64,000 nt of DNA from Planctomycetota bacterium (lineage in GTDB: Bacteria > Planctomycetota > PLA2 > JAEUHO01): positions 1-64,000 of the forward strand of contig CBDCWP010000024.1 of assembly GCA_965223505.1 (NCBI GenBank), given 5' to 3'. Shown here one piece after another: positions 35,787 through 63,720 of the stretch (its first letter is position 1; every line of letters begins with the position of its first letter). The position numbers and the translations under genes are program-made. The notes under the pieces are model-generated. The model searched no databases and was not told where the DNA came from. It was given only the letters and a program-made list of their open reading frames with translations.

Positions 35787-36632
35787 ATGGCGCCTCGCAC
35801 CAGTTGGAAAGGACACGTGCAGCTGGGCCTGGTCTCGGTGCCCGTGAAGGCGTTCACGGCGAACAACACGAGCGAGACCATCCGGCTCAATCAGCTGCAC
35901 AAAGAGTGCAACCAGCGCGTGCGCTACAAGAAGGTCTGTCCGGAGCACGGCGAGCTCAAGCAGTCGGACATCGTCAGCGGGTATGAGTACACCAAGGACA
36001 GCTACGTCATCATCGATCCGGACGAGTTGGCCAAGATTCGCAGCCAGTCCGACCGCTCCATCAGCGTCGAAGGTTTCGTGAAGTCGGAGGAGGTCGATCC
36101 GATCTTCCACGCCGGCAAGACATATTACCTGCTGCCCGACGGCGTGGCCGGCAACCGCCCCTACGCGCTTCTGGCGCGCGGCATGTCCGAAGCGGGCGTG
36201 AACGCGATCGCGCGGATCGTCATCTCTCGCCGCGGGCAGCTCGTGCTGCTGCGTCCGTCCGACGGCATGCTCGTCATGACGATGCTCAACTACGCGAAGA
36301 CGGTGAAGGCGGCCGACGAGTTCAAGAAGGAGCTCTCGGCGGAAGAGACCACCGACGACGAGATGGCGTTGACGAGCACTCTCATCAAGGCCTCCACCAT
36401 CGACGACTTCGACATCGAGAATTACGAAGACGCGTACGCCGAAAACCTCAAGAAGCTGATTCAGATGAAGCTGGACGGCGAAGAGATCGTGCAGGCGGCC
36501 GAGCCCGAGGAGCCGAAGATCGTCAACCTCATGGAGGCGCTCAAGCAGAGCGTCGCCGAGGCGCAGGCCCAGCGGAAGATGGCGCCGTCGGTCAAGGGCA
36601 AGAAGAAGAAGTCCGCCAAGAAGACCGGATAG
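35787..36632 (+). CDS. ku: NHEJ Ku protein
   Basis: SWKGHVQLGLVSVPVK, RVRYKKVCP, YYLLPD and IVNLMEALKQS motifs with a basic tail. GGAG RBS. Confidence 0.95.
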   Translation: MAPRTSWKGHVQLGLVSVPVKAFTANNTSETIRLNQLHKECNQRVRYKKVCPEHGELKQSDIVSGYEYTKDSYVIIDPDELAKIRSQSDRSISVEGFVKSEEVDPIFHAGKTYYLLPDGVAGNRPYALLARGMSEAGVNAIARIVISRRGQLVLLRPSDGMLVMTMLNYAKTVKAADEFKKELSAEETTDDEMALTSTLIKASTIDDFDIENYEDAYAENLKKLIQMKLDGEEIVQAAEPEEPKIVNLMEALKQSVAEAQAQRKMAPSVKGKKKKSAKKTG

Positions 36633-46027: not shown

Positions 46028-48073
46028 CTACCGCTGCATCATGTCTTGCAACGCTTCGATCGCCGGCATGAGATCCTGCCGGTCCTCGAGCAGCGGCGCG
46101 AACAGATCGCCGCGGGCGTCGAGCCGGGGCGGCACCGTCTGGATCGTGAACTGCGACGGATGCAGATCCTCGGCCAGCTCGTCCCATTCGAGCGGCGTCG
46201 AGACCGTCGCGCCGCGCACCGGGCGGACGACGTACGGCGGCACGATCGTCTGCCCGCGCCGGTTCTGACCGAAGTCGACGTAGACCCGTCCTTCGCGCTT
46301 CCCGATCACCCGCTCGACGGTCGCGATGTCGCTCGAGTCGCGCGCGACAACGCGCGCGACGCCCTCGCAGAACATGCGTGCCTGGTCGTACGAGTAGCCC
46401 GGCAACAAGGGTATGTGAATGTGCAAGCCGGTCGCGCCCGAGGTCTTCAGCAGCGGCCGCAGCCCGACGTCGTGCAGGATCTCCCCCACCTTGCGGGCGA
46501 TCTCGATCACGTGGTTGAAGGGCGCCTCCTTCGGATCGAGATCGATGACCGCGTAGTCGGGCGACGCGAGCGAGCCGCGCCGCGACATCCAGGGATGCAA
46601 GTCGATGCTCCCGAGATTGGCGAGCAGGCGCAGCGTGTCGCGCTCGTTGCAGAGCATGTACTGCGCGCCCTCCTCCTTGTCGTCGCCTTCGATCGGAACG
46701 GTCTCCACCCAGTCCGGTATCAGGTCGCGCACGTTCTTCTGATAGAAGCTCTTGCCCTCGATGCCGTCGGGGAACCGGTTCATGTGCAGCGGCCGGTCGC
46801 GCAGGTACGGCAGGATCACGTCGGCAACGCGCTCGTAGTACGCGATCAGATCGCCCTTCGTGAAGCCCTCCGCGGGCCAGTAGACCTTCTCGAGATTCGT
46901 GTACTTCACGCGCGAGCGTCCCTGCGAGGGTCGAATGCGCGTCAGCGCCTCGCCGACATGCAGGCCGTCGGCGGCGGCACCCGCAACGGGAATCTCGCGC
47001 CACGCGTCCGAAGGACCGGCCTCGTACACGCTGTTCGCGCGCTTTGCGACGACCGACGGCAGGCCTGCCGCCTCGACGGCGTTGGCAAGCTGCTCGCCGT
47101 TGCCCGGAACGTGATCGACGAAGAGGACGTGCGCCGACGGCGGCAGGACGGCCCGCAGCGCCGCCTTGCGGTCCACCAGCGGCAGCGAACGCAGGTCGAA
47201 CTCGTCGAAGTACAGCAGATCGAACGCGTAGAAGTGGACCGCGCGGTCGTTCTCGCCGGCCAAGCGGCTCTGCAGGAGCGTGCTCGAAGGACGGCCGGCG
47301 TCGTCGGGGACCACGAGGACGCCGTCGAGCAGCGCGCGGTCCGCTCTGAGCGTCGCGCCGTCGTTTCGGATGTCGGACAGCTCGGCGCCGACGTCCCTCA
47401 GCGACACGTCGCCGCCGCGCTTCTCCAAGAACGCGCGTCGGCCCACGAACCGCATCTCGAACAGCCACGCGGGATCCGAGAACGGCTCGCTGTTCGCGCC
47501 GACGCCCATGGGTTCGACCACGTCGGGCATCGGCGCGCGCTCGGCGCGCTCGATGTCCACGCCCAGCACGGAGCTGCGCGGCGTCCCGCTATAGCGATCC
47601 TTCGACTTGAAGAGGAGCCAGTCGCGCTCGCCCTGCTTCGTCTTGACCAGGTGCCACTCCCCGCGCAACTTCCGTCCGCGCAGGATGATCTTGAGCTCGC
47701 CGCTCTTCACCGCCTCGGGACCGCTGTCGGCCAACACGACCTCGTAGACGCCGCGATCCCAGATGGTCATCGTCCCCGCGCCGTACTGGCCCTTCGGAAT
47801 CACACCGGAGAAGTGCTCGTACTCGAGCGGATGGTCTTCGGTCCGAATCGCGAGGTGCTTGTCGGCGGGGTCGTAGGAGAAACCCTTCGGCACGGCCCAG
47901 GAGCGCAACACGCCCTCCATCTCCAGGCGCAGGTCGTAGTGGAGCCGCGTCGCGTCGTGGCGGTGCACGACGAAAACAGGCTCGTCGCCGCGGACGCCGG
48001 CGTCACCGGGAGCGGGCTCCGGCGTACGCTCGAAGTCGCGCTTCTTCCGATAGTCGTCGATCGAGTCGCCCAC
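46028..48073 (-). CDS. ligD: LigD-like NHEJ protein: phosphoesterase + degenerate ligase + AEP polymerase
   Basis: PE domain: YRKKRDFERTPEP, H.ATRLHYDLRLE, SWAVPKG, EDHP. POL domain: RFPDGI, DLDP, KTSG..GLH, VDFGQN. Ligase motifs are degenerate (EMRFVG). Confidence 0.9.
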   Translation of the reverse strand: MGDSIDDYRKKRDFERTPEPAPGDAGVRGDEPVFVVHRHDATRLHYDLRLEMEGVLRSWAVPKGFSYDPADKHLAIRTEDHPLEYEHFSGVIPKGQYGAGTMTIWDRGVYEVVLADSGPEAVKSGELKIILRGRKLRGEWHLVKTKQGERDWLLFKSKDRYSGTPRSSVLGVDIERAERAPMPDVVEPMGVGANSEPFSDPAWLFEMRFVGRRAFLEKRGGDVSLRDVGAELSDIRNDGATLRADRALLDGVLVVPDDAGRPSSTLLQSRLAGENDRAVHFYAFDLLYFDEFDLRSLPLVDRKAALRAVLPPSAHVLFVDHVPGNGEQLANAVEAAGLPSVVAKRANSVYEAGPSDAWREIPVAGAAADGLHVGEALTRIRPSQGRSRVKYTNLEKVYWPAEGFTKGDLIAYYERVADVILPYLRDRPLHMNRFPDGIEGKSFYQKNVRDLIPDWVETVPIEGDDKEEGAQYMLCNERDTLRLLANLGSIDLHPWMSRRGSLASPDYAVIDLDPKEAPFNHVIEIARKVGEILHDVGLRPLLKTSGATGLHIHIPLLPGYSYDQARMFCEGVARVVARDSSDIATVERVIGKREGRVYVDFGQNRRGQTIVPPYVVRPVRGATVSTPLEWDELAEDLHPSQFTIQTVPPRLDARGDLFAPLLEDRQDLMPAIEALQDMMQR

Positions 48074-48768
48074 TAGGTGAACCGCTTCGCGAACGCCTCG
48101 GCGACGAGAGGTCCGGTGGCCTCGTCCTCGTGCTTGAAGAACACGTGTACCGCCTCCCAAGGCAGGTCGGAGATGGCGGCCTCCCAGGCATCGAGCTCCT
48201 TCTTCGCATACTTTTCTTTGCGAAGCCGCAAGTAGCCGTACGACGCCGTCGCGACGACGGGCGGCGTCAGCTCATCCGTCTCCGAGATCACGAGCGCGAC
48301 GTCGTGAGCCTTGAGCACGTCGTACGTCTCTTCGTCGAACCAGCTCTCGTGCCGAAACTCGAACGCCGACCTCCACCCCGCGGGTAGAATCCTCAGGAAG
48401 GCCTTCAGACGATCGATGTCCTTGCGCAGGTACGGCGGCAGCTGGAACAGCATGGGCCCCTGCTTGTCGCCGAGCTCCTTGGCGCTACGCACCACCCAGC
48501 CGAGCGGCTCTTCGGCGTCCTTGAGGCGCTTCTTGTGGGTAATCCGCATCGAGGCCTTGAGCACGAACGAGAAGCCGTCCGGCACGGCGTCGGCCCAGTT
48601 CCGGACGACCTCCCGCTTCGGAACGCGGTAGAAGGTGTTGTTGATCTCGACCGTGCGAAGCCGGCTCGCGTAGTACGCGAGGAACTTCTTCTGCACCAGA
48701 TCGTCCGGATAGAACTTCCCCTTCCACTCCTTGTAGGCGTAGCCGCTCGTGCCGACCCGGACGTCCAT
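48073..48768 (-). CDS. DUF72 (YecE-like) protein
   Basis: VGTSGYAYKEW.G.FYP, VEINNTFY, LFQLPP and EFRHESW. Stop overlaps the ligD start (TAGTG). Confidence 0.9.
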   Translation of the reverse strand: MDVRVGTSGYAYKEWKGKFYPDDLVQKKFLAYYASRLRTVEINNTFYRVPKREVVRNWADAVPDGFSFVLKASMRITHKKRLKDAEEPLGWVVRSAKELGDKQGPMLFQLPPYLRKDIDRLKAFLRILPAGWRSAFEFRHESWFDEETYDVLKAHDVALVISETDELTPPVVATASYGYLRLRKEKYAKKELDAWEAAISDLPWEAVHVFFKHEDEATGPLVAEAFAKRFT

Positions 48769-48814: not shown

Positions 48815-49846
48815 GTGCACATCGACGACCTGGACTACGAGCTACCTGACGAGCTGATCGCGCAGGAGCCGGCGGCGCGCCGCGACGACGCGCGCATGCT
48901 CGTGTTGGACCGCGCGAAGGACGCGGTCTCCCACGCGGGCGTCCGCGATCTACCGGCGCATCTGCGCGCGGGGGACCTCTTGGTGCTGAACGACACACGC
49001 GTCCTACCCGCTCGTGTCTACACGATGCGTTCGACCGGCGGCCGCGTGGAGCTGCTCTTCCTCGAGCCGCAGGGCGAAGGATGGCTCGCCCTGGCCCGCT
49101 CGGGCGGCCGGTTGCAAGCGGGCGAGCCGCTCACGGTCGACAACGCGACGCTTCGACTCTCGGCCCGGCACGCGGGCGGCCGGTGGCTCGTGACGTGCGA
49201 CGGGGACGTCGAACGGGTCATGGCCGAGCACGGTCGCATGCCGCTGCCGCCGTACATCCGGCGCGACGTCGACGACGGTCGCGCGGCCATGGATGCCGAG
49301 CGCTACCAGACGCTGTACGCCGCGCACGAGGGCGCCGTAGCCGCGCCGACCGCCGGACTGCATCTGACCCCCGCCGTCTTCGACGCACTCTCCGCCGAAG
49401 GCGTCGAGAGGGCGTTCGTCACGCTACACGTGGGACTGGGCACGTTCGAACCGGTTCGGTCCGAACGGCTCGAAGATCACGACATGCACATGGAGCGATA
49501 TGCCGTTGCCCCGGAGACGGCGGACGCCGTCCGCCGCACGAAAGCGCGGGGCGGCCGTGTCGTCGCCGTGGGCACGACGTCGGTTCGCGCGCTGGAAGCG
49601 GCCGCGTTGGCCGCGCCGGACGGACTGCCGCTTCCGGGCTGGGGCCACACGGACCTCTTGATCGCCCCGGGCTTCACGTTCCAGGTCGTGGACGCGCTGC
49701 TGACGAACTTCCATCTGCCCAAGTCGACGTTGATGGCGCTCGTGTCGGCCTTCGCCGGACGGGAGCGCATCCTGGACGCGTACCGCGCAGCCGTCGCGGA
49801 ACGCTATCGCTTCTACTCGTACGGCGATGCGATGCTGTTGCTGTGA
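48815..49846 (+). CDS. queA: S-adenosylmethionine:tRNA ribosyltransferase-isomerase
   Basis: DYELPDELIAQEP, NDTRVLPAR, PLPPYI, YQT, AAPTAGLH, TLHVG.GTF, VGTT, TNFHLPKS and YRFYSYGDAM. Confidence 0.97.
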   Translation: MHIDDLDYELPDELIAQEPAARRDDARMLVLDRAKDAVSHAGVRDLPAHLRAGDLLVLNDTRVLPARVYTMRSTGGRVELLFLEPQGEGWLALARSGGRLQAGEPLTVDNATLRLSARHAGGRWLVTCDGDVERVMAEHGRMPLPPYIRRDVDDGRAAMDAERYQTLYAAHEGAVAAPTAGLHLTPAVFDALSAEGVERAFVTLHVGLGTFEPVRSERLEDHDMHMERYAVAPETADAVRRTKARGGRVVAVGTTSVRALEAAALAAPDGLPLPGWGHTDLLIAPGFTFQVVDALLTNFHLPKSTLMALVSAFAGRERILDAYRAAVAERYRFYSYGDAMLLL

Positions 49847-50955
49847 CGGATCCGTTGACCACCGTTTTCGAGACCGCCGCGTCGTTCGGCTTCGACGTGG
49901 TCGGCGTCACGTCGGCGGCGCCGTTGGACGAAGCGCTGGTGAAGCTCGAGTCCTGGACGTCGGCGGGACACGGCGCGGACCTCCACTACATGACGCGCGA
50001 CCCGCCGCAGCGCGCCGACGCGCGCACGTTGTTGAAGTGCGTTCGCTCGGTGGTCACCGTGGCGGTCAACCACTGGGTCGACGCGCCGGCGTTCGAGGCC
50101 GAGGGCCGCTATGGCCGTATCGCCCGCTACGCCTGGGGACGCGACTATCACGACGTCGTGATCCCGCGGCTGCGTGAGCTCGGTGAGGCACTGACCTCGA
50201 CGTTCGGCGGCGCCGAGGCCAAGGTGGCGTGCGATCACTCGCCGTTCCTCGAGCGCGCGGCAGCCGTGCGGGCGGGGTTGGGGTTCTTCGGCAAGAACAC
50301 CTGCCTGCTGCTGCCGCGCAAGGGATCGTGGTACTTCCTCGGCGAGGTGCTGCTGGACGTCGAGCTGCCGAACACCGAGACCGACAACACCGATCACTGC
50401 GGAACGTGCACGGACTGCCTCGTCGCTTGTCCGACGGACGCGTTTCCGGAGCCGTACGTACTCGACGCACGGCGTTGCATCTCGTACTTGACGATCGAGC
50501 ACGATGGACCGATCCCGCGCGAGCTGCGCGAGCGCATGGGCGCGTGGATCTTCGGATGCGACGTCTGCCAGGACGTGTGCCCGTTCAACCGTTTCGCGAC
50601 GCCCGCGCCGTGGCCGGAGCTTCGACCCGAAGCCGGGGCCGGCACGCGTCTCGATCTCGAAGCGCTTCTCTCCATCCCCGACGACGCGTCGTTCGACGCC
50701 CGCTTCGAGGGCACGCCGCTGCTTCGGCCGGGTCGCAGCGGCATGCTGCGCAACGCCGCGATCGCGGCACGCAACGTCGGAGCGACGAGCGCCGTACCCG
50801 TGCTCGCACGACTCGTGCGCGAGGACGCGGACGCGACGGTCCGCAGCCACGCGCTCTGGGCGTTGCGCGGCCTCGACGAGGGCCGGGCGCGCGCGGCGGC
50901 CGACATCGCGTTACGCGACCCCGATCCGCTCGTTCGCGCCGAGGCCGCGGTGTGA
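49843..50955 (+). CDS. queG: Epoxyqueuosine reductase
   Basis: IARYAWGRDYH, ER..A..AGLG..GKN, CGTCTDCLVACP, CISY.TIE, FGCDVCQDVCPFN and a C-terminal HEAT repeat. GTGA overlap with queA. Confidence 0.95.
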   Translation: MTDPLTTVFETAASFGFDVVGVTSAAPLDEALVKLESWTSAGHGADLHYMTRDPPQRADARTLLKCVRSVVTVAVNHWVDAPAFEAEGRYGRIARYAWGRDYHDVVIPRLRELGEALTSTFGGAEAKVACDHSPFLERAAAVRAGLGFFGKNTCLLLPRKGSWYFLGEVLLDVELPNTETDNTDHCGTCTDCLVACPTDAFPEPYVLDARRCISYLTIEHDGPIPRELRERMGAWIFGCDVCQDVCPFNRFATPAPWPELRPEAGAGTRLDLEALLSIPDDASFDARFEGTPLLRPGRSGMLRNAAIAARNVGATSAVPVLARLVREDADATVRSHALWALRGLDEGRARAAADIALRDPDPLVRAEAAV

Positions 50956-51941
50956 TCTCGATCCTCCTGCCGGTTCGCAACGGCGGCGTGTACTTCCGAG
51001 AGGCGCTGGACTCCCTGGCCGCGCAGACGCACGAGGACTTCGAGGTGCTCGTTCAAGACGACGGCTCGACCGACGACTCCGCCGAGGTCGCACGCGCGTA
51101 CGGCGCGCGCTTCCGCGTCGAGACCGAGCCCCCGAGCGGCATCGTCAGTGCGCTGAATCGAGCGGCCGCCCGGGCGCAGGGCCGGCTGCTCGTGCGCATG
51201 GACGCCGACGACGTGTGCGCGCCGCGACGACTCGAAAGGCTCTGGTCGGCCGCGCAGGAGCACGCGGATGTCGGGTTCTTCGGTAGCCGGGTGCGCTACT
51301 TCCCGGACGAGCATGTGCGCGCCGGCATGCGGCACTACGAGGGCTGGGTGAACAGCCAGCTCTCCCACGCGGAGATACGCCGTGACCGATTCGTCGAGTG
51401 CCCGATCGTGCACGCGTCGTGGGCGATCCGGCGCGAGACGTTCGACGCACTCGACGGCTACCGGGACGGGCTGTTCCCGGAAGACTACGACTTCTTCCTG
51501 CGCGCGGCGGACATGGACACGCGGTTTCGCAAGCTCCCCGACGTGCTGCTCGAGGTGCGCGAGAGCGGCCAGGGGTTCTCGAAACCGCACGAGCGCTACA
51601 GCCACGACGCGTTCCGGACGCTCAAGCTGAAGCACCTGGTTCCCCACCTCGAGACGTTGGGCAGGCCACTCGCCATCGTCGGCGCGGGCCCGGACGGCAA
51701 GCGCTGGGCGAAGGACCTGATCGCCGCGGGGCGACCGGTGCGGCACTTCGTCGAGGTCCATCCGCGCCGGATCGGAAAGGTCATCCACGGCGCCGACGTC
51801 ATCGGCTACGACCAGCTGGAGCGAGCCGAGGGCTGTTTCCTGCTCGTGGCCGTCGGTCAGAAGGGCGCCCGCGACGAGGTGCGCGGCGTGTTGGCGAACG
51901 CGGGGCTGGAAGAAGAGACGGCATTCCTCTGCGTTCAGTGA
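50952..51941 (+). CDS. GT2 glycosyltransferase resembling QTGAL/B3GNTL1 (GT-A domain + C-terminal Rossmann-like domain)
   Basis: ISILLPVRN, DDGSTD, RMDADD (DxD), YEGWVN, PEDYDFF and a C-terminal IVGAGPDGKR. GTGA overlap with queG. Confidence 0.85.
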   Translation: MISILLPVRNGGVYFREALDSLAAQTHEDFEVLVQDDGSTDDSAEVARAYGARFRVETEPPSGIVSALNRAAARAQGRLLVRMDADDVCAPRRLERLWSAAQEHADVGFFGSRVRYFPDEHVRAGMRHYEGWVNSQLSHAEIRRDRFVECPIVHASWAIRRETFDALDGYRDGLFPEDYDFFLRAADMDTRFRKLPDVLLEVRESGQGFSKPHERYSHDAFRTLKLKHLVPHLETLGRPLAIVGAGPDGKRWAKDLIAAGRPVRHFVEVHPRRIGKVIHGADVIGYDQLERAEGCFLLVAVGQKGARDEVRGVLANAGLEEETAFLCVQ

Positions 51942-51958
51942 GTCCGTATCCTGCGAGG

Positions 51959-53494
51959 ATGCGTTTTGTCGCACCCCTGTTGTTGGCGCTGTTCGTGTTC
52001 CGAGGAGACGTCGTGGCGGACGAGCCAAAGGTTCCCATCGAGAAGCTGACCGTCGCGGAGAAGAGCGACTACGAGGCCACGTCCACGTCGGCCGAGGTCG
52101 TCGAGCTGGTGGAACGCATCGTCGAGGTCTCGCCCATCGTCTCGCGCTTCACGTTCGGCAAGACGGTCGAGGGCCGGGACATGATCGCGGCGGTCGCCGC
52201 GCAGCCCCACGTGACGACGCCGCTGAAGCCCGACGACCACCGGCTCGTCGTGCTGCTGCTCGGCAACATCCACGCAGGCGAGTGCGCCGGAAAGGAAGCG
52301 CTGTTGCGGCTCCTACGCGAGCTCGGCCTGGCCGCCAACCACCCGTGGATGAAGCACCTGGTGATCTTGTTCGTGCCGAACTACAACGCCGACGGGAACG
52401 ACAAGACGGCCAAGGACAATCGCCCCGGCCAGGTTGGTCCCAAGAACGGCATGGGGACGCGGGCGAACGCGCAGGGTCTCGACCTCAACCGCGACTTCGT
52501 GAAGCTCGAATCGCCGGAAGCGCGGGCGTTCGTCAGGTTGATCGACGAGTGGAGTCCGCACGTCTTCATCGACTGCCACACGACGAACGGTTCGCGTCAC
52601 CGCTACGCGCTGACGTACGACGTCCCGCACAATCCCTCGGCGGCGACCGCCGCGGTCGTGTACGCGCGAAACATGATGAAGACCGTGACCGAGACGCTGA
52701 CGAAGCGCGGCCTCGACACCTTCTACTACGGCAACTTCGATCGGGACCACACCCGCTGGTCGACGTACGGGCATCAGCCGCGGTACAGCACCGAATACGT
52801 GGGGCTACGTGGACGCATCGCCATCCTGAGCGAGGCGTACTCGTACATCCCCTACCGCGAGCGCATCGAGGCGACACATGCGTTCGTCTCGGCGTGTATC
52901 GACCACGTCGCGCAGGTGAACGAGACCGTGGCACTGCGCTCGCTGCTCTCGCCGACGACGCTGCCGAGCGAGGTCGCGATCCGCGCCGAGATCGCGCCGT
53001 TCGCCGACAAGGTCGTGCTCAAGGGGTACGAGGCGACGGGCAAGCGCGCGCCCGGGCCGATCGAGAACGGCGTGCCGAAAGACCACACCGTCGAATTCTG
53101 GGGGCGCTTCGACCCCACGCTCACGGCCAAGCGCCCCGTGGCGTACGCCATCCCGCCGACGCACGAGAACATCGTCGAGCACCTGCGCCGGCACGGCATC
53201 GAGGTGACGAAGGCCGAGGCCGATCAAGAGCGAGCGGTGCGCGTCTCGAAGCCGACGGACCTGCAGAAGTCGCCGGCGACCTTTCAGGGACATCAGCTCG
53301 TCACCGTGAACACGACGACGACAGAGGGTCGCAGGACGATTCCGAAGGGCTGGTTCCTCGTGGACGCCACTCAGCGGCTCGGCAATCTCGCGGTCTACCT
53401 CCTCGACCCGCGCTCTGACGACGGGCTGGTCACCTGGAACTTCTTCGACGATGACCTGGAGGGCGAGTTCCCGGTCCTGGAGGTGCTCGACTGA
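51959..53494 (+). CDS. Secreted M14 zinc carboxypeptidase
   Basis: IHAGE (HxxE), NADG, DLNRD and DCH motifs, with a signal peptide. Confidence 0.88.
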   Translation: MRFVAPLLLALFVFRGDVVADEPKVPIEKLTVAEKSDYEATSTSAEVVELVERIVEVSPIVSRFTFGKTVEGRDMIAAVAAQPHVTTPLKPDDHRLVVLLLGNIHAGECAGKEALLRLLRELGLAANHPWMKHLVILFVPNYNADGNDKTAKDNRPGQVGPKNGMGTRANAQGLDLNRDFVKLESPEARAFVRLIDEWSPHVFIDCHTTNGSRHRYALTYDVPHNPSAATAAVVYARNMMKTVTETLTKRGLDTFYYGNFDRDHTRWSTYGHQPRYSTEYVGLRGRIAILSEAYSYIPYRERIEATHAFVSACIDHVAQVNETVALRSLLSPTTLPSEVAIRAEIAPFADKVVLKGYEATGKRAPGPIENGVPKDHTVEFWGRFDPTLTAKRPVAYAIPPTHENIVEHLRRHGIEVTKAEADQERAVRVSKPTDLQKSPATFQGHQLVTVNTTTTEGRRTIPKGWFLVDATQRLGNLAVYLLDPRSDDGLVTWNFFDDDLEGEFPVLEVLD

Positions 53495-62472: not shown

Positions 62473-63720
62473 TCAGGGCTTGGGGGCGAGCTCCTTCTGA
62501 ATGGCGTCTTCGAGCTCGTCAGGTAGGAACTGGAACGGCCCGGGACCGCCGCGGTACGCGATCTTGCCGTCCTTGCTCACCAGGTAGAGGCGGTCGGGCA
62601 TGGCCCGGTAGGCCTTGCCGACGGCATTGTCGATGTCGTCGACGAGGATCGGCATGCCGTGAAGCTGCATGCCGTCGCAGCACTGCTTGGCGACCACCCG
62701 ACGCTCCTCGAGCGTCTTCGGCTCTTCGACGATCGGCTGGTCCTTGTCGGGCATGGGTGCGCGGCCGTCGATGGCGTGGGCCTCGTGGATGTAGACGACG
62801 AAGAACTGCACCCGGTCGCCGTACGTGTGGAAGAGGGACATCAGCCGACCGGCCGCGAAGCGGAAGGGCTGTCAGGTGTAGCTGCCGAAGATGAGCGCGA
62901 CGGGCTTCTCGTCCTTGAAGGAGGAGAGCGTGACGGGATCGCCGCCGTCGGGCGGACGCAGCGTGAAGTCCGGCGCGTCCGTCCCGGGCGCGGGTCCCGT
63001 GACGCGCGGCGGGCCGCTCATGCGCGGTCCCTCCTGTTTCCACACCCCGTCGCCGTCGGGATCGGCGGACGAGAAGAACGCGGCGAGCTCGTCGGCCGAG
63101 ATGCCGTTGCTCCTATCGGCGTCCGCGAGCATCGCAAGCGACTTGAAGCTGCGTACGCCGTCCGGCATGCGCGGGATGCCGGGCGTGATGAGGTCCTTCT
63201 TCTCCCGGCGAACCGTCTCGAGCTCGGCCTCCGTGAGCTGCCCGTCGTCGTCGCGGTCGATCCTCCCGAAGTGCGCGTCGAGCTCTTCGAGCGTGAGCGA
63301 GAGATCTGCGTCCGACTGGAAGTACCGTAGCAGCGTGACCGTCGCGATCATGCGATCCATGCGGGTCGCCTGCTGGAAGTCCTCAGTGGTGAGCTTCCCG
63401 TCGTCGTTCACGTCCAACCGTCCGAACGCGTCCTTGCCGCGCCCGTACTCCTCCTCCGTCACGTCGCCGCTCTCGTCGAGGTCGTACTTGAGGCGGTAGA
63501 AGTCCCACGCCGAGTCCAGGTGGGTCGCGACGATCGTCGTCCGATCCAGCGTCGGCGCCGCGACCTCGGGCTTGGCGCACGGCGGCCTGGAACGGCCTCG
63601 CTGCGGACAGCACGGCTTCGCCCGTACGCAGCAGCGCACGCTGACGGCGCGTCCGTGAGCGCAGCCGGCCAGCAGCGCCGCGGCCAGTGCGGTGAAGACG
63701 ATCGCGATTCGCGCCTGCAT
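62473..63720 (-). CDS. EF-hand + iodothyronine-deiodinase-like (thioredoxin fold) selenoprotein, lipoprotein, with in-frame UGA (Sec) at 62874-62872
   Basis: The two track ORFs are in one frame. Read-through gives APDFTL…KPVALIFGSYT-U-QPF…VYIHEAH…VDDIDN…Y.AMPDRLY, matching the deiodinase GSxTUPxF and EAH motifs. Several DxDxDG EF-hands are present. Confidence 0.85.
62842..62871 (-). promoter_or_regulatory. Putative bacterial SECIS element
   Basis: After UGA comes CAGCCCUUCCGCUUCG-CGGCC-GGUC-GGCUG: a 5-bp stem (one G-U) with a GGUC apical loop starting 22 nt downstream. Confidence 0.55.

Follow-up and report, generated by a model that had tools for sequence, protein, structure and literature searches.

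A candidate bacterial queuosine-tRNA glycosyltransferase encoded with QueA and QueG in Planctomycetota

The 64-kb stretch of Planctomycetota DNA analysed here as a whole (the window, 67% G+C) encodes, directly behind queA and queG, a soluble glycosyltransferase (GT) of family GT2 that resembles QTGAL (B3GNTL1), the eukaryotic enzyme that galactosylates queuosine in tRNA-Tyr (PMC11755703). The three genes are translationally coupled, they stay together in one clade of Planctomycetota, and the motifs of the GT are collinear with those of eukaryotic B3GNTL1. We propose that the GT is an inverting, nucleotide-sugar-dependent enzyme that modifies queuosine-34 on tRNA, a reading whose chances we put at about even.

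The queA-queG-glycosyltransferase cluster

QueA was identified by NF001140 at equivalog level (E 1.5e-127; 425 bits compared to a cut-off of 324), in addition to TIGR00113 (E 1.8e-112) and PF02547 (E 5.5e-127), and shares 48% identity with E. coli QueA. QueG, likewise assigned at equivalog level (TIGR00276, E 8e-98; 327.5 bits compared to a cut-off of 200), contains the domains Fer4_16 (PF13484, E 1.5e-23), DUF1730 (PF08331, E 3.3e-17) and HEAT_2 (PF13646, E 5.2e-6). At both junctions the tetranucleotide GTGA makes each GTG start overlap the TGA stop of the gene before (Table 1), which confirms, along with the three gene identities, the translational coupling claimed in the initial annotation. 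A GAGG precedes the GT start by 9-12 bases, the GT reading frame has no alternative start codon close upstream, and the closest homologue (P0005, 79% identity to the window GT) starts at the same residue.

Relatives of the GT were sought in a scan of one genome per species, which matched 576 stretches, 492 of them encoding relatives; the best 80 loci were kept, and their neighbouring genes were grouped into families by clustering all open reading frames (ORFs). Searches with the window QueA and QueG (tblastn) found both genes directly upstream of the GT gene, in the same order, in five of the 80 loci (L001, L002, L004, L007 and L038), which are all five loci labelled Planctomycetota. These share 43-52% identity with the window in the GT and 60-71% in queA and queG. 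As a sensitivity control, E. coli QueA recovered exactly the window and the same five loci, at 45-57% identity. At the queG/GT junction, the two genes overlap by 4 bases in the window, L004 and L038 and abut in L001; in L007 and L002 the choice of start decides between a 4-base overlap and a gap of 5-8 bases. A 4-base overlap between queA and queG is possible in L002, L007 and L038. Among the six flanking window genes tested, msrA alone recurs, in L002 only, at a different place and on the opposite strand relative to the trio. This single stray match indicates that only the queA-queG-GT trio has been kept, and its recurrence in five further Planctomycetota genomes with differing flanks puts the arrangement beyond chance. 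Altogether, these comparisons support the conservation and tight coupling of the cluster throughout a clade of divergent Planctomycetota.

The overlapping codons and the retention of the trio amid changed flanks argue for a common function of the three products. The same operon evidence would also fit a GT that glycosylates a free or non-tRNA 7-deazaguanine, such as queuine, queuosine, epoxyqueuosine, a precursor or a deazaguanine in DNA, with storage, export or protection as conceivable purposes. However, the substrates of both QueA and QueG are tRNA-bound, and the cluster contains no genes for salvage, transport or DNA modification (dpd), which renders such an activity improbable. A match to DpdE within the window was discarded, as it belongs to a Snf2-type helicase about 24 kb upstream that matches several helicase models below their cut-offs.

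The glycosyltransferase, its family and its likeness to QTGAL

The window GT consists of a catalytic GT-A domain, a linker and a small Rossmann-like domain (Table 1), and all the motifs first quoted for it are present in the 329-residue protein. The AlphaFold2 model, built with the family alignment A1, is compact and of high confidence along the entire 329-residue chain, with a mean predicted local distance difference test score (pLDDT) of 95.5 and a predicted template modelling score (pTM) of 0.93. It is laid out as the GT-A domain, a loop followed by a long helix, and a small α/β domain, with the boundaries listed in Table 1; the linker loop is the least confident part (pLDDT of 74 for block 201-210 and 87 for block 211-220). 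Structural similarity search against the PDB using Foldseek returned generic GT-A enzymes of family GT2, including WrtF, SpsA, RmlT and the heparosan/chondroitin synthases (E ~1e-14). Their TM-scores of 0.51-0.59, normalised by query length, imply that the solved GT2 structures cover only the first domain. The C-terminal domain gave weak profile matches to TIGR03570 (the NeuD/PglB/VioB N-terminal domain, E 1e-4) and, with profile A1, to VioB (7txp, E 2.2e-6) and Rex (5zz5, E 1.1e-5). Over residues 240-328, it thus weakly resembles the N-terminal domain of NeuD/PglD/VioB/PerB and the NAD(H) domain of Rex, with which it shares a G.G..G-type loop; the E-values reach only 1e-4 to 1e-6, and in the window GT the module follows a GT-A domain in the same chain. 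No membrane segment was found in the protein (top 19-residue Kyte-Doolittle mean of 0.9), which is soluble and without a signal anchor, unlike the Golgi B3GNT enzymes.

A search of 5.8 billion proteins yielded 1893 matches at E <= 1e-3 among 8000 scored candidates. The best 120 matches are all 310-354 amino acids long, 117 of them align with 96% or more of the query, and those that bear a name are called merely "glycosyltransferase". When 1.84 billion cluster representatives were searched with a profile, 26,043 matched at E <= 1e-30; the best 150 of these are mostly full-length (302-387 amino acids), in addition to about 20 much longer multi-domain proteins that match in the GT-A part only. 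Family alignments of 36 and 127 members revealed conserved residues in both domains, and R82, D84, D86, D87, W132, E177 and D178 are invariant across the 127 sequences. The bacterial consensus comprises DDGS.D, MDADD, RYE.W.N, E.P..HP and PEDYD in the GT-A domain, followed by WR....R.SR.D.RY in the linker and by WGAG..GK, AF.D.DPRKIG and a terminal EG.DF..VA in the C-terminal domain, where the window GT deviates by EEETAF in place of EG.DF. Moreover, several members match the CoA_binding model PF02629. These results support a large, conserved and soluble two-domain unit rather than a generic envelope GT2. The family occurs in Gemmatimonadota, Planctomycetota, Myxococcota, Verrucomicrobiota, Bacteroidota, Desulfobacterota, some Pseudomonadota and other phyla, and its cultured carriers include Solidesulfovibrio fructosivorans JJ and Aureibacter tunicatorum NBRC 107587. 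In the linker (residues 206-213, window 51567-51590), both the window GT and P0005 carry SGQGFSK where the family has the basic R.SR.D.

The eukaryotic enzymes were compared through the full-length GT2-B3GntL sequences in the supplementary table fig3-data2 of PMC7185993, using the rows of human Q67FW5, C. elegans Q19421, an oyster protein and W4GNN4 of the oomycete Aphanomyces. By eye, the bacterial consensus and these rows follow the same motif order through both domains. The eukaryotic rows show [IV]IPV.N, then DDGS.D, NDGSTD or NDASKD, followed by the DxD region (xDxDD) as LDSDD, NDADD or QDIDD, an R[YF]T.W.N-type motif (RYTRWIN, RYTKWAN, RFTKWAN or HYTAWAN) and PEDL[IL]FF (PMC7185993). In the C-terminal domain they have FTIW[NGS].G..GK, as FTIWNAGKQGK or FTIWGCGRDGK, then AFCD[VI][DN]..KI, as AFCDVDPKKI, AFCDVNEKKIG or FCDIDESKIG, and end with EG.DF (PMC7185993). 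The motifs Y..W.N, PED..FF, IW.AG..G.R, DVD..KI and L.EG.DF, which the initial annotation had attributed to B3GNTL1, all occur in the human row of that table.

The window GT matches this scheme part by part. Its first domain is of GT-A type according to PF00535, the model, Foldseek and the invariant D84/D86/D87; the R[YF]..W.N and PED motifs are recognised by eye as HYEGWVN and PEDYD (RYE.W.N and PEDYD in the bacterial consensus); and the C-terminal domain of about 100 residues is recognised, also by eye, from VGAGPDGK, HFVEVHPRRIG and the end GLEEETAFLCVQ. Bacterial and eukaryotic proteins are thus both soluble, of about 330-360 amino acids, with a GT-A domain followed by a small Rossmann-like domain, and by eye share DxD, R[YF]..W.N, PED, W[GN].G..GK, AF.D.D..KI and the terminal EG.DF in the same order. 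They differ in PEDYD[LF] of bacteria compared to PEDL[IL]FF of eukaryotes, in E.P..HP compared to GPT.[IV].PTW, and in the basic linker stretch R.SR.D.RY, which has no counterpart in the eukaryotic rows. Unlike QTGAL, the window GT is bacterial. Its gene adjoins those of the enzymes that make its presumed substrate. Consistent with the likeness, a feature search of a protein atlas with bacterial clusters set aside, which gives no alignment or E-value, placed a cluster named B3GNTL1-like (Eukaryota) nearest, with a score of 0.98 and 206 of 256 features shared, ahead of a viral cluster (0.94, 165 features) and a bacterial one (0.93, 154 features).

Three homology searches, using the plain query, a long fused member and a 127-sequence profile headed by that member (length window 166-1290 amino acids), placed no eukaryotic B3GNTL1 among the best matches listed in each (at most 120). 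The sole eukaryotic match among those listed is a diatom protein (P0339, 884 amino acids), which was tried as a proxy for B3GNTL1 and rejected, as it aligns with the GT-A part only (hhalign, 98.5%, columns 17-232). The GT2-B3GntL group of PMC7185993 has 683 sequences, none of them bacterial, and the strings DPRKIG, DPKKIG, DPRRIG and PEDYDL do not occur in any of the 12 files of that supplement, which indicates that the bacterial family lies outside its survey. A cyanobacterial entry labelled "GT2-B3GntL" in the tree of PMC7185993 was also set aside, since it is an unrelated tetratricopeptide repeat (TPR) protein of 1181 amino acids from the group GT2-Mix-3.

Automatic names given to family members include "glycosyltransferase involved in cell wall biosynthesis", the weak sub-threshold NCBIfam matches of the window GT are EpsE, TuaG, WcaA and similar models, and its nearest solved structures are polysaccharide GT2 enzymes. 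Despite these signs, an ordinary part in the synthesis of envelope polysaccharide or glycolipid seems highly improbable. No NCBIfam model reaches its cut-off, the best match (EpsE, 75 bits compared to 450) falls far short and, like every other, covers the N-terminal GT-A part only, and the protein has no membrane segment. SpsA, WrtF, RmlT and the chondroitin/heparosan synthases, which act on glycans or teichoic acids, share the GT-A fold and the DxD donor site, but match the first 100-230 residues only and lack the C-terminal domain, RY..W.N and PEDYD. No polysaccharide or lipopolysaccharide (LPS) gene family recurs beside the GT gene among the 80 loci, and in Aureibacter tunicatorum the GT gene is alone, with opposite-strand genes on both sides. 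Moreover, the extra domain and the motifs are common to the cytosolic B3GNTL1 (PMC7185993).

In the mechanism that we propose, one translationally coupled message would yield QueA, QueG and the GT. QueA would convert preQ1 to epoxyqueuosine-tRNA and QueG epoxyqueuosine to queuosine-tRNA (Q-tRNA); the GT would act after both, so that the gene order follows the order of the pathway. As a cytoplasmic, metal-dependent GT-A enzyme, it would move a sugar onto a hydroxyl of the queuosine cyclopentenediol, with D84, D86 and D87 predicted to hold the metal and the donor diphosphate, and E177/D178, at the "xED" position, probably serving as the base. An inverting GT2 makes a β-glycoside from a UDP-α-sugar, and such an inversion would yield here the same linkage as in galactosyl-queuosine (galQ). 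The galactose of galQ is β-linked (PMC12518689), as expected of an inverting GT2 using a UDP-α-sugar. The C-terminal Rossmann-like domain, which is common to QTGAL and absent from ordinary GT2 enzymes, is a natural candidate for holding the acceptor, either the anticodon loop or the queuosine nucleotide, and we propose it as a tRNA- or nucleotide-binding module. From the cluster and the likeness to QTGAL we infer Q-tRNA as the acceptor, and in the same conditional sense the donor sugar, the tRNAs modified and the role of the C-terminal domain.

A small domain resembling nucleotide-binding modules could hold a free nucleoside as well, and the acidity of the window protein is unusual in an RNA binder; both features would suit the glycosylation of a free 7-deazaguanine. 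On the other side, the eukaryotic relative acts on tRNA (PMC11755703, PMC12518689), and phages lack a full-length relative in 50,697 records, where none of the 100 matching records covers 80% of the query.

Genomic contexts and the choice of acceptor

Outside the Planctomycetota clade, the neighbourhood of the GT gene varies by phylum. In Gemmatimonadota it is flanked by uvrA (39 loci) and gyrA (34 loci). In three loci of Xanthomonadales/Lysobacterales it directly follows a gene for a class II aminoacyl-tRNA synthetase (aaRS) of LysS size (505-581 amino acids, Asp/Lys/Asn type), preceded in two of the three by a release-factor gene, an order that we take to be the prfB-lysS arrangement; a carbon-nitrogen hydrolase follows the GT in two of them. 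The neighbours in the other 16 loci examined are mutually unrelated, with no recurring polysaccharide cluster. Full-length relatives were also found on large secondary replicons of two cultured Bacteroidota, L081 and L082 (Table 1). Altogether, the GT gene stands alone in housekeeping contexts, and other contexts also touch translation or modified nucleosides.

Fusion partners that look real are TudS/DUF523 (P0150 and P0273), CYTH (P0195) and a methyltransferase (P0171). In P0150 (489 amino acids) and P0273 (463 amino acids), which form one clade, a TudS/DUF523 thio-nucleotide desulfidase domain is fused N-terminally to the two-domain GT, and Cys-containing stretches are present in P0150. TudS removes sulfur from thio-uracil nucleotides, and RudS, a relative of it, eliminates 4-thiouridine from tRNA (PMC10611767, PMC11417400). 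Three other candidate fusions were rejected: in P0167 and P0236 the extra N-terminal sequence is of low complexity and resembles a miscalled start, and P0289 is a contig-edge fragment in which a piece of the GT runs into HEAT repeats. An apparent in-frame QueG-GT fusion in L004 is also an artefact: 10 N inside queG (L004 1598-1607) make queG and the GT gene one frame of 695 codons, and the real junction is a GTGA at 1761-1764. Such an N run could lead an automatic pipeline to miscall a queG-GT fusion. In P0278 (1283 amino acids), UvrA domains and the GT share one ORF, either by fusion or by read-through.

Several observations weigh against queuosine as the acceptor. By tblastn, the other 75 of the 80 loci have neither queA nor queG within 8 kb, and E. 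coli Tgt detects no tgt in the window, in the 80 loci or in the plasmid loci L081 and L082 (82 loci in all). The expected enrichment of que or tgt genes around homologues was therefore not borne out, which realises half of what the initial annotation named as refuting its proposal: the linkage is confined to five of the 80 loci and to one clade, with queA or queG in none of the other 75 and tgt in none of the 82. In a quick maximum-likelihood tree (IQ-TREE, 85 rows, with L049 omitted for N in its translation), which otherwise broadly follows the phyla, the que-linked genes and P0005 form one clade of seven rows, with full support (100) in the Shimodaira-Hasegawa-like approximate likelihood ratio test (SH-aLRT). 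The linkage thus counts as one event followed by retention, not as repeated convergence. The position between uvrA and gyrA in Gemmatimonadota points the same way. The window GT is acidic (isoelectric point (pI) of 6.1) and has a glycine at position 208, where 96% of the family (127 sequences) have Lys or Arg; the family is mildly basic at most, with a median pI of 8.8 and a pI below 7 in 34 of 115 members. Furthermore, the match to B3GNTL1 is a comparison by eye plus a feature search that yields neither an alignment nor an E-value, solved structures resemble the window GT at the generic GT-A level only, and no QTGAL structure was found in the copy of the PDB used.

Most of these points would be accommodated by a true relative of B3GNTL1 that acts on a different acceptor, namely a different modified nucleoside of RNA, a metabolite linked to a nucleotide, or a protein from the machinery of translation or of DNA, with the que linkage as a lineage-specific accident of gene order that persisted. 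The scarcity and single origin of the linkage, the contexts that change with phylum (uvrA/gyrA, a LysS-size class II aaRS and others) and the varied fusion partners (TudS, CYTH, methyltransferase) agree with it. So do the C-terminal domain, which is like the small-nucleotide-binding modules of sugar N-acetyltransferases and Rex, the acidic window protein with its G208, and a B3GNTL1 likeness assessed by eye and by feature search. We nevertheless consider a different acceptor, the main rival reading, unlikely, if far from negligible. The stop/start overlaps and the trio are retained in six genomes while the flanks changed, and the fusion to TudS and the adjacent aaRS gene both suggest a link with RNA and translation. 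Moreover, within the wider family a function is known for one member only, and the substrate of that enzyme is queuosine in tRNA (PMC11755703).

For the proposal of a bacterial Q-tRNA glycosyltransferase, as first advanced from the DNA, the outcome is therefore mixed: the motif order, the nearest atlas cluster and the conserved trio speak for it, whereas the que linkage holds in one clade only. Two known systems decorate queuosine in related ways. GluQRS (YadB), a truncated paralogue of glutamyl-tRNA synthetase, is the known bacterial hypermodification enzyme; once queuosine synthesis is finished, it uses ATP to add glutamate to the cyclopentenediol of queuosine-34. The GT would resemble it in being bacterial and, by analogy, in the proposed site on the same cyclopentenediol, whereas GluQRS has no glycosyltransferase fold and adds no sugar. 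QTMAN (GTDC1) is a GT4 enzyme of GT-B fold, unlike the GT-A fold of the window GT. It is the eukaryotic Q-tRNA mannosyltransferase, which also places a sugar on queuosine-34 (PMC11755703, PMC12518689), but it is a separate gene and enzyme, and links its mannose in α-configuration to the other hydroxyl (PMC12518689).

Decoration of queuosine with galactose (galQ) or mannose (mannosyl-queuosine, manQ) has been regarded as peculiar to animals, and the known bacterial decoration is glutamylation. The writers of galQ and manQ were reportedly named in 2023. A literature search, whose coverage did not extend to the original paper naming QTGAL, returned no account of queuosine carrying a sugar, or of homologues of QTGAL, in bacteria; to that extent the initial annotation is supported in treating such a modification as not known from bacteria. 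The same silence is also expected if the modification is absent, which adds to the points against it. Should the proposal hold, it would mean a new tRNA modification in bacteria and an origin for the eukaryotic enzyme. It would also give a function to a very large family labelled just "glycosyltransferase", and a small, well-behaved bacterial protein (model pLDDT of 95) for structural work on how an anticodon loop is read. Somewhat short of an even chance, in our view, is the broader possibility that sugar-modified queuosine is widespread in bacteria through this family, that eukaryotic QTGAL descended from it and that the C-terminal domain is a hitherto unrecognised module for reading the tRNA anticodon loop; queuosine glycosylation would then be, like queuosine itself, a bacterial invention. 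As cultured carriers exist, the idea is directly testable.

Table 1. Features of the cluster and of the GT in the window, and loci of selected relatives (locus coordinates for L051 to L082)
Feature	Nucleotides	Strand	GT residues	Remarks
queA	48815-49846	+		343 aa, GTG start; tRNA preQ1(34) S-adenosylmethionine ribosyltransferase-isomerase
GTGA overlap, queA/queG	49843-49846	+		GTG start of queG and TGA stop of queA; read in sequence
queG	49843-50955	+		370 aa, GTG start; cobalamin/4Fe-4S epoxyqueuosine reductase with C-terminal HEAT part
GTGA overlap, queG/GT	50952-50955	+		GTG start of GT and TGA stop of queG; read in sequence
GT2 gene	50952-51941	+		329 aa, two-domain soluble, QTGAL/B3GNTL1-like; PF00535 E 4.4e-31, residues 3-165
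GT-A catalytic domain	50952-51566	+	1-205	
DDGSTD			36-41	GT-A domain
DxD as MDADD	51198-51212	+	83-87	GT-A domain
HYEGWVN			128-134	GT-A domain
PEDYDFF			176-182	GT-A domain
PEDYD	51477-51491	+	176-180	likely catalytic-base "xED" motif
Linker loop and long helix	51567-51659	+	206-236	
Small Rossmann-like C-terminal domain	51660-51938	+	237-329	
AIVGAGPDGKRW			241-252	C-terminal domain
GAGPDGK	51681-51701	+	244-250	C-terminal domain
FVEVHPRRIG			266-275	C-terminal domain
GLEEETAFLCVQ			318-329	C-terminal end of GT
Terminator-like hairpin, then TTTTGT	51945-51963	+		after GT stop; overlaps ATG (51959) of next gene
aaRS-GT locus L051	5736-9781			
aaRS-GT locus L053	4669-7427			
aaRS-GT locus L064	5432-9832			
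L081	6995-7987			Aureibacter tunicatorum pAT1, 615 kb; 31% identity
L082	7001-7993			Persicobacter sp. JZB09 plasmid 2; 26% identity

Other features of the window

No further queuosine gene was found elsewhere in the 64-kb window. The terminator-like hairpin behind the GT gene is a weak call, because a consensus terminator scan gave 5 sites compared to 3.2 +/- 1.9 in shuffled sequences. Seventeen bases downstream of the GT gene, an unannotated secreted protein with an N-terminal hydrophobic leader is encoded at 51959-53494 (+). It has no NCBIfam match at E <= 1e-10, and from its motifs it may be a zinc carboxypeptidase; in the other Planctomycetota loci this gene does not accompany the trio.

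Upstream of the cluster, a DUF72-like gene and ligD lie on the opposite strand. The multidomain LigD (46028-48160, -), with phosphoesterase, ligase and polymerase parts, and a Ku protein (35787-36632, +; TIGR02772, E 4.9e-78) constitute a non-homologous end-joining pair about 10 kb apart.

At 62473-63720 (-), two adjacent ORFs match different parts of the NCBIfam model "deiodinase family protein". Read through, they form one frame of 415 codons with a single TGA (62872-62874) inside FGSYT*QPF, at which position iodothyronine deiodinases presumably carry selenocysteine. From its sequence, the frame is a candidate bacterial selenoprotein.

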